In this document: positions 1,463 to 9,085 of the stretch, in pieces | How the letters are laid out: every line of letters begins with the position of its first letter | Position numbering within the stretch: position 1 is the first letter of the stretch | Origin: a virus | Taxonomy: Duplodnaviria > Caudoviricetes | DNA: 64,000 bases | Strand: one strand, 5' to 3' | Virus record (IMG/VR): IMGVR_UViG_3300011908_000001 | Span: 8,376 to 72,375 of that record | The notes under the pieces: model-generated | What the model saw: only the letters and a program-made list of their open reading frames with translations | Database searches by the model: none | Told to the model about the DNA's origin: nothing | Made by a program: the position numbers and the translations under genes

Positions 1463-2855
1463 ATGAACGAAGAAAAACCATTAGAGCTTGAGAAAGCCTA
1501 TATTGTAATGAATCCAAAGCAGTGGCTAGACATCGGTAACGCATTGTTGGTAGCCGGTAACCAACTTGACTTCGCCCAAGAGGTTCATCAAGGAGACCCT
1601 ATTTTACGATCTAATCTAGCGGCTGAAATTCATTTAGCCATTAAGGTACTTAACAAGGTGCACGCTAGTTCCAAGGATTTCATGGATGACCACGATGTTT
1701 CTGCTAACGTCATGTTGGAGAGCATCCATGATCAATTAGTTGGACTAGCTAATGAGCTTTACCCACTGCTTAATGAAGAAGATAAGAATGAATTGGTAGA
1801 GGAAACTAAAGCCTTCTCCAAAAAACTGAACAGTAGTTTTGCTGAACAGGTATTCACCCGCCTCTCAGACGATGAAGAGGTGCTAGAAAAGTTCCCTAAC
1901 GAGGGTAGCTTGCGCACTATGGTGGATGATACTTATGACTCTCATTTAGATGGGATGGTTGACGAGGCGTTCGGGGAGGTTATCAAATGAGTTCTGAACC
2001 AATCCGCTCAACTGTAAGAATCTTCCGAGAATGCTTATATGACCAAAGTTTCAACCTAGAGTTCTTCCGTGAGGACTTAGGGGAGGAAATTGCAAAGCAA
2101 CCAATTTGGACTCCTATGTCTTTCCTCGCTGCTGTTGGAGAGTCTTTGCGAATACTATGTGGGGAAGCCATAGAAATCCTCTCAGCTGATCCTCCGGAAG
2201 AACCTATCGTACTTCAAGTAGAAATTGACTACCATATTGAAGGTCTATTATTAAAAGCACATACAGTATATGCTTCTTCAAGAATTGGAAAAGCCAGTAA
2301 AGAAGAAGAGTCCTCACGACTCTGCGATTTGGTTTTACCCCAGATTACAGAAGGACTTAAACCCATCATCGGAGGTAACTAAATGGATTACTCACGGTGG
2401 CACATAGGCGACAAGGCGTTCTACCAAGGACAAACTTGTGCCAACACAGTAACTTATGGCGAGGAGTACGAGGTAATCCGTTTAGTAGAAGGAAAGCCTC
2501 GGCACGCCTTTATAAAAGATGACTCAGGGAATGACAAACTTATTCAAATGAGTTCATTATTCGTTAAGACTGGAGGTAAATAACCATGAGCAAGTATACA
2601 TTAAGTATTGCACCCGACGACAAAACACCTATTGAGACAGGTTTCGCTGATTTTTATAAACTGCCAGAGATTTTAGAAGAGTTCATCAAAGGATTTACAG
2701 GTGGCGAAAGCCCCTACCACAAAGTATCTTTCATGTTAGAAGAAGTTGGCACTGGAAGGTCCCAACTAGTAGAAGCTTCTTATGAAGCATTGGAGAACAT
2801 CCCTACCATTGGTGGAGAGGTAGTTCGACAATTAGTTAAAGGATTTACAAATTAG
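1463..2855 (+). CDS. four hypothetical proteins (1463-1990, 1987-2382, 2383-2583, 2586-2855)
   Basis: Abutting ORFs with GGAGG-type RBS; no recognisable motifs. Confidence 0.7.
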
Positions 2856-2868
2856 TTTTAAATACCAC

Positions 2869-2897
2869 TTGACAAATATCCACTAATGTGGTAATAT
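2869..2897 (+). promoter_or_regulatory. sigmaA-type promoter heading the RNA locus
   Basis: TTGACA-17 bp-TAATAT with TG extension; no ORF downstream for about 760 bp. Confidence 0.75.
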
Positions 2898-3003
2898 AGT
2901 TTTATAAGGTACTACAAAGTGCTTTAAATATTAGCTCAATGTTATCTATGAATTATGTGACCAACAGGTTAGGGGGTGCGGAAACACCTCTTAACCACAT
3001 TAC

Positions 3004-3104
3004 AGGGGAGTGGCGTGAGGGCATGCGCACCTGAGAAACCAGGGTCAGGTAATAATCAGCTGATAAAACTGACATATCGTAGGTTCGAATCCTACCTCCA
3101 TCTA
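3004..3104 (+). tRNA. aberrant tRNA-like element (extra arm, weak acceptor stem)
   Basis: Perfect T-arm GTAGG-TTCGAAT-CCTAC; D-like hairpin GCGT/ATGC; two central hairpins; only about 5 bp of acceptor pairing. Confidence 0.45.
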
Positions 3105-3204
3105 TACTTCCGTTAAGGAAGCTTTTGTAAAATCACCCCCCCCATGACTTCACAAAAAATAATCAAATATTTTTTCGAGATAAATGGTAGTAAATATATT
3201 AAAT

Positions 3205-3612
3205 AAATCAGGGAGACTCTTTAAACCGTAACGGACATTTCGGTTTAAACTTCTCCTTACATAATTCCTAGCGAAACGGGTGGAAGAGGCGTATTCCCGT
3301 TTAGTTGATCTTAGATTTACTAGGACTTCAAGTTCGCAAGAAACTTAGGCAGACGTGTCCATCCTCTAAGTACAGGTCAGAGAGGTTTCCTCCTTATAGT
3401 TTTTCACATAGCACCGATTGCCCTTTAAAGGGGCTGACCTAAGCATTATCACCTGAATGCGTTCATAGTGGTAGCAACGTCGTTAAACTGCTCGGCTCTT
3501 CGGAGCCTACATAATTGTGAGTGACCTGAATGGCTTTAGGTAAGGTCTCTGAAACGGTAGTATGAGCCACATACTTGACCCGAAGAGAGTGTTGACCACT
3601 TGGCTCTCTTAC
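3205..3612 (+). ncRNA. 5' domain of a large structured non-coding RNA
   Basis: Dense stems: TTTAAACCG/CGGTTTAAA, TCCTAG/CTAGGA, AAACGGG/CCCGTTT, AGGTCAG/CTGACCT, GGCTC-TTCG-GAGCC, AAGAGAG/CTCTCTT; GCAA tetraloop; no ORF in the track. Confidence 0.65.
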
Positions 3613-3619
3613 TTTAGAT

Positions 3620-4162
3620 AGGTTGTTAGTGTAGTAGGTAACATAGGCAGGAGGTTAGTTTTGAAAGAGTTTATGTATGGTTATTTAGTTAATGAAGACG
3701 GGGAGGTTTTCTCCACTAAGTATGGTAAGTTAAGAAAGTTAAAGGGCAGGAAAAATCAAAAAGGGTACCTTATGTATGTTTTGAGTTTCGAAGGTAAAAC
3801 CCAAGACTTTTCAGCTCACCACTTATCGTACTATGTAAATATTAGTCATTTCGACACCTCAGATGGTCTTCAAATAGATCACATAGATGGTAACAAGTTG
3901 AATAATAATTATTTAAATCTTAGGAGAGTAACACCTAAAGAGAATTACAATAACCCATCTACTAAGCCTGATAGTCGAGGAAATAAAAGTCCTAGATACT
4001 TAGAAATAGACATGGATGAATTAAAGGATCTTTTTATTTCAGGAGAGTCTATAAGGAGTATTTCGAAGCATTTCAAATGCTCAAGGCAAGTGGTAAATAG
4101 TAGACTTTCGAAGCTAAACCTATAAAAAAACGCCGACAGGGGTTCGAATCCTCTACGACCTG
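3620..4162 (+). ncRNA. tRNA-shaped RNA whose anticodon loop is replaced by an HNH ORF
   Basis: Acceptor AGGTTGT(3620-26)/ACGACCT(4155-61); D-arm GTGT-AGTAGGTA-ACAT; GGC/GCC; T-arm AGGGG-TTCGAAT-CCTCT. Confidence 0.75.
3661..4125 (+). CDS. HNH homing endonuclease
   Basis: IDHIDGNKLNNNYLNL HNH motif, C-terminal HTH-like segment, AGGAGG RBS plus TTG start. Confidence 0.85.
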   Translation: MKEFMYGYLVNEDGEVFSTKYGKLRKLKGRKNQKGYLMYVLSFEGKTQDFSAHHLSYYVNISHFDTSDGLQIDHIDGNKLNNNYLNLRRVTPKENYNNPSTKPDSRGNKSPRYLEIDMDELKDLFISGESIRSISKHFKCSRQVVNSRLSKLNL

Positions 4163-4169
4163 TATAAGT

Positions 4170-4350
4170 TTTCGGCTACCGAGTGGTCGAGGCTTAGAGG
4201 GAGGGCGGTCTCCCTTAAATGAACAGCGCACGTAGGCTTCCATGTCGAAGCCCTTTGAACTCCCTGATAAAACGAGAGGTGCCTACCAGATCGTATGCGC
4301 ACAGGGAGGATTAGTACGAGACTTTGGGCTCGCAGTCAGATAAGACAGAA
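4170..4350 (+). ncRNA. 3' domain of the structured RNA, with a candidate pseudoknot
   Basis: GCGCA/TGCGC and GTAGGC/GCCTAC stems; CTCCCTG(4260-66) inside the loop can pair with CAGGGAG(4302-08); 4192-4201 can pair with 3362-3371. Confidence 0.55.
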
Positions 4351-4360
4351 AAATCAGCTG

Positions 4361-4426
4361 TAGGATTTGTAGTAGGTGCAGTCAGGTAAAGGCGCCTGAT
4401 GGGGAGTTCGAATCTTCTCAGTCCTA
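4361..4426 (+). tRNA. compact tRNA-like cloverleaf with a non-canonical 8-nt anticodon loop
   Basis: TAGGATT/AGTCCTA, TGTA/TGCA, GTCAGG-TAAAGGCG-CCTGAT, GGGGAG-TTCGAAT-CTTCTC. Confidence 0.55.
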
Positions 4427-4435
4427 TTTTAATTA

Positions 4436-4509
4436 GTGGTAGTACCGAAGCGGTTTAACGGCTCGGATTGCAAACCCGATGTTCAGGGGTTCGAATCCCC
4501 TCTACCACT
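4436..4509 (+). tRNA. tRNA-Cys(GCA), CCA not encoded
   Basis: Acceptor GTGGTAG/CTACCAC, loop TT-GCA-AA, T-arm AGGGG-TTCGAAT-CCCCT; A:C mismatch at the base of the anticodon stem. Confidence 0.92.
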
Positions 4510-4570
4510 TAGGGCACACGCCCTTTCCATATGAGGTTTAAATTCCTCTTTCATATTTTTCCTCCCCTTT

Positions 4571-4606
4571 TACCCATTACATCGGAAAGTGTAGTGGGGT
4601 TTTTTA
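4571..4606 (+). terminator. intrinsic terminator ending the RNA locus
   Basis: CCCATTAC/GTAGTGGG stem followed by a T-run. Confidence 0.75.
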
Positions 4607-4634
4607 TTTTATTGTTGACAAAGTAACGGGAGGC

Positions 4635-4877
4635 ATGGTATACTCATCTTATAAATCATTAGGAGGAGATAGTATGGTTCTAGTAAGTGCGCTTGATACC
4701 AGCGATGGCACATATAAGGATGCACACATTAACGCATTCCAAGTAATCTTTAGCAAGGAAATAGGCGGAGGATACTTCTGGGTTGACTGCGTAGGGGGTC
4801 AAAGAATCCGCTGTGTAGGAAGTTACAAGGTTTTCATATCTCGCATGAATGTAGTTTTAAAAGGTGGTAGCAAGTAG
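4635..4877 (+). CDS. hypothetical protein
   Basis: ORF after promoter 4615-4644; true start probably MVLVS. Confidence 0.6.
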   Translation: MVYSSYKSLGGDSMVLVSALDTSDGTYKDAHINAFQVIFSKEIGGGYFWVDCVGGQRIRCVGSYKVFISRMNVVLKGGSK

Positions 4878-5904: not shown

Positions 5905-6186
5905 ATGTTTAAGAGTTCGGTAAAGAGCATTGCTGGTGCTACGTGGAAAACAGTTATTGAGATTGCCTTGGTACTAACTATCATCAACCTTGTACAGGAG
6001 TATGGATTCGCATTAAGCATCGCCTACTTAGCGCTTGTTGTAGTGGCTGCTTTCTTAACCCTAGTATTGTTTTCATGGTACAATTACCATAAGCTTGTAA
6101 AACAGTTTTCTGATGAACTTCATGTAAGTAAGGAAAAGGCTAAAGAAGTAATCAACAATACCTTTGCGAAAGGTGTGGGAAAATAA
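5905..6186 (+). CDS. membrane protein
   Basis: Two hydrophobic segments; own promoter TTGACA(5844)-17-TATACT. Confidence 0.7.
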   Translation: MFKSSVKSIAGATWKTVIEIALVLTIINLVQEYGFALSIAYLALVVVAAFLTLVLFSWYNYHKLVKQFSDELHVSKEKAKEVINNTFAKGVGK

Positions 6187-7175
6187 TGGCATACTTTAAA
6201 TATCCATCATTAACTAACCACTATGCAATCAACAAGTCACGTCAGATATCAGAGGCTCTTGAGACACTCTGCTATTCAACAGAGAAGATTCATGGAAGCA
6301 ACGTCCAATTTGCTTTTGAAAGAGATGAGCCAATCACTAAATTCAAAGCTTATTCACGTGGAGGTACCCTTATTTCTGGCACAGATTCAGAAGGTAATGT
6401 AGTGCAAGATAAACAATTCCCTCTAGTAGCAGATATGGCAGTAGCCTATAATTTACCAGAGGTGGCAGCAGATATCTTTGCTGACTACCACTCAATTGAC
6501 AAGATTAACATCTATGGGGAGTACTTTGGTAGCGGCGTTCAGAAGACCAACTACACCCTCTCAGAACTAGGTGAGAAAGATTTCCAAGTTTTCGATATCC
6601 TGTATAGCTTCAAAGGTGAAGATGAGGATACTCGCCACTCTATGGGTCTAGCTGAGCTGCTTCATTATGTAGGCGCAGAGAAGATGGCTACTATTGAAAG
6701 ATTTGGCTCTTTGAAAGACTTAATCGCCACTGATATCCCCACTGATTCAACCTATGGAGGTCAACGTGAGGGTAATGTCTATAAGAGCGTTAACGGAATG
6801 GCTATCTCACCTAACATTAAATACTTGGGTATCAAGCACAAGCGACCTGAGTTTTCAGAGGTAGCCTCAAAACCTAAGCAACCTAAGCAACCTGTCAAAC
6901 ATTCAGATGAACTACTCGAACTAGCTTCCAGTGTAGAAGACTATGTAACGATTAATCGCATGCGCAATGTACATTCACACGGAGATATCCCGTTCACCTA
7001 CAATAACATTGGAAAGATTATGTACTTGTTTAAACAGGATATTATTAAGGAGTTTACAGAAGATAACTCAGAAGTCAATATTAAAGAGTTAGAGAAAGCA
7101 CTTAAGATGAGTGATCGTCAAATTGCAATGCTTGCAAAAGATGTAATCAATGAATTAGGAGAGGTGGAAGATTAA
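6186..7175 (+). CDS. RNA ligase, Rnl2-like
   Basis: Nucleotidyltransferase motifs EKIHGSN (I), IYGEYFG (III), FQVFDI (IIIa), EGNV (IV), IKHK (V). Confidence 0.8.
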   Translation: MAYFKYPSLTNHYAINKSRQISEALETLCYSTEKIHGSNVQFAFERDEPITKFKAYSRGGTLISGTDSEGNVVQDKQFPLVADMAVAYNLPEVAADIFADYHSIDKINIYGEYFGSGVQKTNYTLSELGEKDFQVFDILYSFKGEDEDTRHSMGLAELLHYVGAEKMATIERFGSLKDLIATDIPTDSTYGGQREGNVYKSVNGMAISPNIKYLGIKHKRPEFSEVASKPKQPKQPVKHSDELLELASSVEDYVTINRMRNVHSHGDIPFTYNNIGKIMYLFKQDIIKEFTEDNSEVNIKELEKALKMSDRQIAMLAKDVINELGEVED

Positions 7176-8317: not shown

Positions 8318-9085
8318 GTGAAAAAATCAGTTCTGAAAGATAAGCTTATGTTAATGACTGGTAAAACGGCAGAAGAAATAGAGCCTATGATTACACATAT
8401 ATACGTACAGCTTTTCGGAGTATCCGGTAACGGAGGTAAATTCGGAGAGGCACATATTCCACAGGAGTTTTCAGATTACTTTATGGAGAACTCTCCAGTA
8501 GCACCTAAGCAAAAAGCTATTTATAAACAATTGAAAAGTTATGTAGAGACTTTCAAAAGATTTTACAACCCTCAAGAGGGGGATGCACCTATTAGAAATA
8601 TTTATCTATGGAGTAATGACAAAGGTAATGGGAAGTCAACTACCGCAGCTGTCCTTTTAAATGAGTTCATGATTATGGGATGGAAAGCATCGGTAGCACT
8701 TTCACGCAACTGGGATAAACCACCTGCATTCTTCTTGGATGTAAATGAGTTACAAGCACTTTATAATAAGTTCTCACGTAACGGGATCGCTCCGGAGATT
8801 GCGGAGGAGGCTTCCAGAGAATATTATAGATTGATTGACAAAGCTACTCAAGCACCATTAGTAGTGTTCGATGACATCGGTGTTCGTTCGGCTACAGAAG
8901 CTTTCCGTGGGGATATCCACACAATTATTAACAAACGTTTGGTAGACGGTCTTACAAGCATTTATACCTCCAACTTCCCATTGAAGTATATGGAAGAATT
9001 GTTTGATGAGCGTATTTACGACCGCATTCGTGCAAACTGTTTTGAAATTAACTTTAAAGGTCAAAGTATGAGAGGTGTGAAATAG
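8318..9085 (+). CDS. dnaC: DnaC/IstB-like helicase loader ATPase
   Basis: Walker A KGNGKST, VVFDDIG, TSNF, ERIYDRI. Confidence 0.85.
   Translation: MKKSVLKDKLMLMTGKTAEEIEPMITHIYVQLFGVSGNGGKFGEAHIPQEFSDYFMENSPVAPKQKAIYKQLKSYVETFKRFYNPQEGDAPIRNIYLWSNDKGNGKSTTAAVLLNEFMIMGWKASVALSRNWDKPPAFFLDVNELQALYNKFSRNGIAPEIAEEASREYYRLIDKATQAPLVVFDDIGVRSATEAFRGDIHTIINKRLVDGLTSIYTSNFPLKYMEELFDERIYDRIRANCFEINFKGQSMRGVK

Follow-up and report, generated by a model that had tools for sequence, protein, structure and literature searches.

The interval 3205-4350 of the phage sequence studied here is, with a probability that we put at roughly 55%, the middle of a 1.7-kb polycistronic RNA operon in a tRNA island, assembled from exchangeable modules and having as its stable domain a module (module A, 3253-3392) of an RNA family that is not listed in Rfam. 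The window, that is, the whole stretch of 64,000 nucleotides that was analysed, covers positions 8,376 to 72,375 of the IMG/VR record IMGVR_UViG_3300011908_000001, a complete virus of 72,375 bases; positions given without a locus name are those of the window, and the features described all lie on its plus strand. The phage is of Enterococcus type, about 72 kb long, and belongs to a group of siphophages; among named phages it is closest to EH93P1/P2, EH802P1/P2 and 9181, which are Enterococcus phages of ~70 kb. A first-pass annotation had described the interval as one large structured RNA wrapped around a tRNA and an HNH gene; on the whole, the sequence features that it listed are present, but the reading of them as a single RNA does not stand.

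Module A is about 140 nt long and has five hairpins, with helices at 3275-3281/3296-3302 and 3310-3314/3320-3324, a GCAA hairpin at 3330-3346, a GACG-loop hairpin (3348-3351/3356-3359) and a last hairpin (3363-3367/3381-3385) with a 13-nt loop. Alignment of 3240-3400 with the relatives, the nearest included, revealed compensatory changes in several of these hairpins. A covariance model built from eight sequences (R1) scored 129.5 bits in the window over the full length of the model, with all five helices formed, and 15-27 bits in ~50 other phage and prophage loci. A degenerate pattern, written so as to fit both sequence types, gave 47 contigs in IMG/VR and 26 among genomes. Of the former, 46 were confirmed with R1, as were three Enterococcus genomes (E. 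malodoratus, Ca. E. wittei and E. hermanniensis) and a 518-nt contig labelled Vibrio. In the covariation alignment (36 rows, 35 of them distinct), 92.3% of the cells form standard pairs, compared with 70.4% in shuffles and 33-42% when the partners are slid, and changes on both sides were found in 24 of the 33 module A pairs. The GACG-loop hairpin is paired in 99.3% of the cells and the last hairpin in 98.9%, with four of its five pairs covarying; the GCAA hairpin is the weakest helix (76% paired). Judged from these alignments, module A is a covariation-supported family absent from Rfam 15 and occupying the same niche as the ROOL and GOLLD RNAs. The first-pass annotation had proposed a possible new class of RNA, and module A is the part of that proposal that survives, as a structured, conserved and tRNA-associated RNA outside Rfam, whereas the wrapped architecture of ~600 nt is not conserved.

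Most members of the family carry, in addition, a pseudoknot of 6-9 bp between the 5' leader and the loop of the last hairpin, formed by at least four different pairs of complementary sequences; in prophage copies it is worth about -10 kcal/mol, and only 0-3 of 200 shuffles are as good. This pseudoknot is present neither in the window (-4.1 kcal/mol, equal to shuffles) nor in its closest relative, L009. A candidate second pseudoknot, 3343-3348/3366-3371, competes with the GCAA hairpin and in most members has just 3 bp. Module A starts, in the prophage loci inspected, no farther than ~10 nt past the 3' end of the tRNA or tRNA-like element before it; in the window, the preceding tRNA-like element ends 150 nt upstream and is separated from module A by a variable spacer. 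The Enterococcus phage EFP01, a myophage of the Schiekvirus group, has a full-length match to R1 (25 bits, E ~1e-6) 120 nt downstream of a ROOL RNA. Prophages and Schiekviruses have module A joined to a different downstream module. Their units, found at L038 7311-7875, L021, L061, L067, L035 and ~40 other IMG/VR loci and at L019 1923-2339, are 413-1141 nt long and share one order: a tRNA-like element with a 7-bp acceptor stem and a T arm or substitute hairpin, module A, an optional insert (in some cases a genuine tRNA), then another conserved module, which a 7-bp helix closes, and at the end a terminator. None of these units matches Rfam, and they are unannotated in the GenBank records and in published Schiekvirus genomes.

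The flanks of the HNH gene had been described as free of open reading frames (ORFs) and dense in stems. The first point is correct, since no ORF longer than 56 amino acids exists in 3205-3620 or 4163-4350 and the only real one is the HNH gene (3661-4125), and the two tetraloop hairpins reported there, UUCG at 3494-3507 and GCAA in module A, are present as well. The second point failed: the folding energy of both flanks is the same as that of shuffled sequences (z = -0.04 for 3205-3620 and z = -0.89 for 4163-4350), an outcome that the first-pass annotation itself had named as a refutation. Only for 3253-3392 and a few hairpins do conservation and covariation make up for it. The candidate pseudoknot 4260-66/4302-08 is likewise predicted to pair, but as an ordinary nested helix in local folds. 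These energies would suit a non-functional spacer made of decaying tRNAs and recombination scars, in which any complementarity is a by-product of repeated tRNA-like sequence. So would the mosaic and variable content of the locus, including a part without any homolog (4165-4309), the degenerate acceptor stem of the first tRNA-like element, the loss of the pseudoknot in the window copy, and a long-range duplex, described below, that is partly built of generic T-stem-like sequence. We regard such an origin as quite improbable, given that module A is conserved across unrelated phage families and shows compensatory changes, even in a comparison of the window with its nearest relatives; a variant of 3277-3482 on a metatranscriptome contig (run X20) adds a fourth compensatory version of the 3310-3324 hairpin.

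The limits of the operon had been placed at a promoter at 2869 and a terminator near 4571, with tRNA-like elements punctuating the unit, and both boundaries were found, 1.7 kb apart. The promoter (2869-2897) is of the sigma-70 type, with 10 of 12 consensus positions plus a TG, and the block 2862-2893, which overlaps it, is conserved in EH93P1 and EH802P1. The intrinsic terminator (4573-4608) consists of a hairpin at 4573-4598 followed by a T run, and overlaps a block (4488-4605) that is conserved in relatives.

To see how the modules are inherited, ten loci were compared: the window, the GenBank phages EH93P1 (L001), EH802P1 (L002) and 9181 (L003), five loci collected through the neighbouring primase protein (L009, L010, L011, L013 and L015), and one metagenome locus, L018, which was the only relative retrieved with a strict pattern that found nothing in genomes. 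Searches of IMG/VR with the primase, as a single protein and then as an alignment, gave no relatives, and of the exact patterns scanned against IMG/VR one gave nothing and the other five chance matches in coding regions. The window combines module A, module B, a tRNA-Trp split by the HNH gene, a region of its own (4165-4309) and a 3' terminal block (4310-4356). L009 (primase 84% identical) has module A and module B, 83% identical over 3257-3643, followed by an intact tRNA-Trp(CCA) and no 3' domain. EH93P1 keeps only 3255-3380 of the 5' part, with a different module B, a tRNA-Trp split by HNH, and its own 3' domain plus the terminal block; EH802P1, 9181 and L013 have the same arrangement with an intact tRNA-Trp. 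The EH group (EH93P1-, EH802P1- and 9181-type phages) has only 3255-3380 and 4310-4356 in common with the window. In L018, module A is followed by a different module B, an HNH-split tRNA-Trp and then a tRNA-Arg, without the terminal block, and in L010 by a different module B, an intact tRNA-Trp and the terminal block, module A being divergent there (98 bits). The L011 contig does not include the 5' block and module B; it shows no tRNA before the terminal block, which is present, and has a tRNA-Thr downstream. L015, which is more distant, has its tRNA-Trp intact and an RNA region without similarity at the blast level. Because module content differs in this way among loci, the two flanking domains are not a co-inherited pair, and the proposal that they form one RNA of ~600 nt around the HNH module finds no backing in L009, which lacks the 3' domain, or in L018, which lacks the terminal block.

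Module B (3393-3619), which is structured and contains the UUCG hairpin, is common only to the window and L009, where it is 83% identical; reading the two sequences side by side, compensatory changes are seen, for example in a small hairpin at ~3453-3466. The region 4165-4309 includes the segment 4192-4205, complementary to module A, and a hairpin (4234-4251) whose counterpart in EH-group relatives shows two compensatory pairs; no homolog of this region was found among the phages, IMG/VR, metagenomes or sequencing runs searched. The terminal block is 83-88% identical in L001-L003, L010, L011 and L013, is restricted to the ~70-kb Enterococcus phage group, and is absent from prophage and Schiekvirus loci. 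L009 runs from its intact tRNA-Trp straight into the terminator region, and the junction falls in the near-identical T arms of tRNA-Trp and tRNA-Cys. L009 3562-3740 corresponds to window 4126-4163 and 4484-4684, so that the 3' domain, the third tRNA-like element and the body of tRNA-Cys are missing from it. The alignment makes this loss look like a deletion by recombination between the two T arms.

The HNH gene had been taken for cargo of the surrounding RNA. It is instead a polymorphic insertion into tRNA-Trp, which is intact in six relatives. The cassette (3644-4125; ribosome-binding site 3648-3653, ORF 3661-4125 coding for 154 amino acids, Pfam HNH_3, E = 1e-8) is 482 nt long, of which 465 are ORF, plus the ribosome-binding site, and takes the place of 11 nt in the anticodon stem-loop. 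Aligning it with intact tRNA-Trp (L009, EH802P1 and 9181) showed that the acceptor, D and T arms are kept around it: 3620-3645 holds the acceptor 5' strand and D arm, and 4126-4162 the 3' anticodon stem, the T arm (4138-4154), the acceptor 3' strand (4155-4161) and the discriminator (4162). A contig from run X18 joins 3643 to 4126 through 11 other letters, identical to L009, and represents the uninterrupted allele. The cassette occurs in three of nine tRNA-Trp loci (the window, EH93P1 with its twin EH93P2, and L018); EH802P1, 9181, L009, L010, L013 and L015 have the gene intact. In the window, 3620-4162 is not a tRNA (RF00005) in the sense of a cloverleaf with an anticodon in a 7-nt loop, positions 27-35 being replaced by the cassette, and is called by neither ARAGORN nor Rfam. 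On sequence grounds, the HNH gene behaves as a selfish gene of the free-standing homing-endonuclease type that knocked out a dispensable phage tRNA. In EH93P1 (~2046), the first acceptor base of the split tRNA-Trp has changed, so that pair 1-72 is mismatched, while the uninterrupted allele of EH802P1 pairs; this hints that split copies decay. A CCUCC stretch at 3389-3393, just past module A, is complementary to the HNH ribosome-binding site (3647-3651) and pairs with it in the predicted global fold; it also occurs in L009, which has no HNH gene.

An I-HmuI-like HNH ORF inside a phage tRNA gene is the classical setting of group I introns, and the homolog in EH93P1 is annotated as I-HmuI-like. 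This would favor a self-splicing intron, group I or other, in which the flanks form a ribozyme that removes the insert from the tRNA. We consider this extremely improbable. No Intron_gpI match was found even at E <= 10, the insert replaces 11 nt instead of cleanly interrupting the gene, and it is almost entirely ORF, with no room for a ribozyme in the cassette. Moreover, the flanks are not intron parts because they are present around uninterrupted tRNA-Trp genes in the relatives.

Two pairings across the insert had been reported, a 10-bp helix, 3362-3371/4192-4201 (eight Watson-Crick and two G-U pairs), and a perfect 8-bp pairing, 3371-3378/4157-4164, and both are present. They are parts of a composite duplex (3358-3360/4203-4205, 3362-3371/4192-4201, 3372-3378/4157-4163 and 3381-3385/4150-4154) that dominates the computed ensemble in folds of 600-1700 nt, with pair probabilities mostly of 0.7-1.0 and one junction pair at ~0.5. 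Its free energy difference (ddG) is -24.3 kcal/mol, compared with -3.9 +/- 2.3 for 400 shuffles, none of which matches it, and with -16.4 kcal/mol for the best of 1527 natural 32-mers; corrected for all downstream positions, the duplex has -23.9 against a null of -13.2 +/- 3.3. The nearest-neighbour model puts it ~14 kcal/mol below the alternative conformer, in which the local hairpins and the tRNA arms are formed.

This complementarity, far beyond chance, is an argument for one large two-domain, GOLLD-like RNA, in which 3205-3619 and 4165-4350 would be closed by the 3358-3378/4157-4205 duplex and the tRNA and HNH gene would be cargo of the linker. The 5' and 3' blocks do co-occur around a tRNA in five relatives, and tRNAs in GOLLD linkers provide a precedent. 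Nevertheless, we think this architecture unlikely. None of the seven relatives tested has long-range complementarity above the null, and in their ensembles the region forms local pairs; L009 has the same 5' strand but no 3' domain, and the 8-bp pairing with the tRNA 3' end is down to 5-6 bp in L009 and the EH group. The 5' strand of the duplex is the 5' strand and loop of the best-supported module A hairpin, the one 98.9% paired across 35 sequences, and the duplex can form only at the expense of that hairpin and of the acceptor and T stems of the tRNA. The conserved local fold is expected to form first, because it is transcribed ~800 nt before the partner. A functional, intact tRNA in the middle would have to be excised, severing the halves, and no similarity to GOLLD or ROOL was detected. 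The spanning helix is, therefore, not a conserved closing helix, its 5' strand belonging to a covarying local hairpin in a family whose members tested lack the partner. The 28-nt complementarity (3358-3385 with 4150-4164 and 4192-4205) does exist in this one phage; at best, it would be an alternative or intermolecular pairing specific to this lineage. The family pseudoknot has been lost in just the lineage whose loop has become complementary to the tRNA 3' strand, a coincidence worth noting. By eye, complementarity with one apparently covarying pair also suggested a conserved spanning helix in the EH group; this candidate was dropped, as its duplex and cofold energies are no better than those of shuffles, the ensembles pair locally, and the 3' partner lies in a local hairpin with a compensatory change of its own. 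A tRNA with 3372-3378 and 4157-4163 as acceptor stem was also discarded, since its T arm would be out of register.

The same pairing could act within this phage as a cis switch, in which the duplex would sequester the acceptor and T strands of the tRNA-shaped HNH transcript and, with the CCUCC stretch, limit the processing or the translation of the selfish HNH gene, an idea that is compatible with a modular operon and that we hold to be doubtful. In the predicted global fold, 3381-3385 is paired to the 3' strand of the T stem, 3372-3378 to the 3' strand of the acceptor and 3389-3393 to 3647-3651, and the complementarity is strongest in this HNH-bearing phage. However, the 5' strand and CCUCC are identical in L009, which has no HNH gene, and the HNH-bearing EH93P1 and L018 show no such duplex.

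The first-pass annotation had also suggested membership of the GOLLD or ROOL classes. At the gathering threshold, the only match to Rfam 15 is the tRNA-Cys, and a search at E <= 10 over 2800-4700 gave no GOLLD, ROOL, group I intron, tmRNA, RNase P or hepatitis delta virus (HDV) family; matches to the large RNA families are also missing from the relatives and the prophage copies. With the same tool, ROOL (RF03087, for which 99.1 bits to the covariance model was the membership cutoff) is found at 264.8 bits in the tRNA island of EFP01, and two Schiekvirus-like IMG/VR contigs (L049 and L060) score 263-268 bits. This positive control was run for the ROOL model only, not for GOLLD. Since the tool finds ROOL where ROOL exists, the RNA of the window is a detectable member of neither class. 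A theta or other HDV-like ribozyme is not indicated either: Rfam gave no HDV-type match and, by inspection, the strand order of module A is unlike the nested double pseudoknot of these ribozymes, with no dedicated theta model used. We found no description of this RNA in the literature searched by motif and topic. Large catalogues of unnamed RNAs exist, one of them with ~10,000 viral candidates (PMC10690425), and the latter could contain it already.

We therefore return to the modular operon. The operon would be transcribed as one precursor, which RNase P and RNase Z would cut at the tRNA and tRNA-like elements, releasing stable structured RNAs. Processing by these two enzymes is established for tRNA precursors. 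Module A would then be a compact RNA domain that acts with a partner, a role like the one that context suggests for ROOL and GOLLD, and in this phage the spanning pairing could keep the 5' and 3' RNAs attached to each other once they are processed, or else cover up the tRNA-shaped HNH transcript. Contigs from RNA libraries (two studies) cover parts of the 5' RNA of relatives, a weak hint of expression; none of the sequencing runs holds more than a third of the sequence words, and their contigs cover only parts of the stretch. Throughout the family, a sequence motif, UUACAUA followed by A/U and U, recurs at module junctions, at 3257-3266 and 3508-3517 in the window, at 2029 in L015 and just before the terminator in many prophage loci. 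It may mark processing sites or serve as a linker.

Several points weigh against this interpretation. RNA-library contigs can derive from DNA, and the covariation alignment is model-fitted and dominated by few sequence types, so that independent events are fewer than the cell counts suggest. The role given to module A is deduced from its context only, and without the pseudoknot the copies of the window and L009 may work differently or be degenerating. Finally, predicted folding strongly prefers the spanning duplex, and a single closed RNA would be possible for this phage. A tentative variant, to which we give some weight, is that module A, the preceding tRNA-like element and the following modules together constitute an undescribed third class of ROOL/GOLLD-like RNAs of 0.4-0.9 kb, or else that module A is a new tRNA-adjacent ribozyme. 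If a third class were real, the matching motifs in the leader, the loop of the last hairpin and the downstream module could support alternative or intermolecular pairing, and the 28-nt duplex of the window would be one lineage's version of such a contact.

The remaining elements of the operon are mostly tRNA-like. Element 1 (3004-3104) has a long extra arm, a non-standard anticodon-like loop and an acceptor stem that is degenerate in the window copy; it scores 20 bits against the Rfam tRNA model in the window and 31.9 bits in L009, and its arms, read from the sequences, covary among the window, EH802P1 and L009. The EH802P1 and L009 copies have an acceptor stem of 7 bp; their anticodon-like and extra arms covary, and their loops are non-standard. 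The element is conserved and horizontally shared, with copies at L009 2905-3006, 96% identical to the one in EFP01, and at L019 3501-3601. It is followed by a weak terminator-like hairpin (3107-3121) and by the variable spacer (3122-3252), with a local hairpin at ~3210-3258 in the minimum free energy fold and without a blast match in L009 or L001-L003. Downstream of the terminal block are tRNA-like element 3 (4361-4426), recognized from the sequence by its T arm and an 8-nt anticodon-like loop and called by neither ARAGORN nor Rfam, and a tRNA-Cys(GCA) at 4436-4509 (57.6 bits in Rfam, and called by ARAGORN). L013 (3085-3130) and L010 (2885-2930) contain a mini tRNA-like element of ~46 nt with a 7-bp acceptor stem and a T arm and neither D nor anticodon arm. 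L015 belongs to the Toszka/Entf1-like primase group (49% identity) and has at the equivalent place (1360-2680) its own RNA operon of 1.3 kb, with tRNA-Trp, a 41-amino-acid ORF, two T-arm-bearing elements and the junction motif, module A being below threshold (8.6 bits). The whole ORF-poor stretch of the window (2856-4634) lies between small early genes and a Toprim primase. An Rnl2-type RNA ligase (6186-7175; Pfam RNA_ligase and T4_Rnl2_C) is encoded 1.6 kb downstream of the RNA operon and is kept at the same place in L013 and L014.

ROOL and GOLLD RNAs are abundant and form cages, and a further covariation-supported domain in the same niche makes the question of their function more testable. 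Module A is a small and tractable element for genetics and structural work in culturable Enterococcus phages (EFP01, EH93P1, EH802P1 and 9181), and nature offers ready-made deletion and insertion variants, such as L009, which lacks the 3' domain, and the alleles that do or do not carry the HNH gene. The annotation of published phage genomes can also be corrected, as their "empty" stretches of 1.3-1.9 kb are RNA operons.

Among known systems, one that is close in setting is ROOL, which also comprises structured RNAs of phages and prophages of Firmicutes, Enterococcus included, in or beside tRNA islands, and in Schiekviruses the module A copy lies ~120 nt downstream of a true ROOL. However, the two do not match in sequence or structure, their helices and pseudoknot are unlike, the conserved unit is ~140 nt long in module A and ~580 nt in ROOL, and module A is also found where there is no ROOL, as in prophages and this phage. 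GOLLD linkers sometimes hold tRNAs, and the 3' region of GOLLD is universally conserved (bioRxiv 10.1101/2024.12.08.627333). Both GOLLD and the RNA described here occur in phages and prophages near tRNAs and have a variable part beside a conserved one; here a tRNA-Trp, and in relatives also a tRNA-Arg, stands between the 5' and 3' parts, a likeness of context and not of membership. The conserved part is 3' in GOLLD and 5' here, where the 3' part is dispensable (L009), the total conserved structure is much smaller, and there is no match to Rfam.

The theta ribozymes, minimal HDV-like ribozymes that adjoin viral tRNAs (PMC10879173), are likewise structured RNAs immediately beside a tRNA, and most module A members have a pseudoknot with the 5' leader; their minimal HDV-like fold differs from the five hairpins and the other strand order of module A. 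The operon as a whole is reminiscent of the tRNA clusters of T4-type phages, which are polycistronic tRNA operons with small stable RNAs invaded by homing endonuclease genes. T4-type clusters contain the extra stable RNAs species 1 and 2 and free-standing homing endonucleases (SegB), and T5 has HNH genes in its tRNA region. By comparison, the endonuclease gene described here lies, with no intron, inside the anticodon arm of a tRNA, and the additional RNAs are of larger size and contain pseudoknots.

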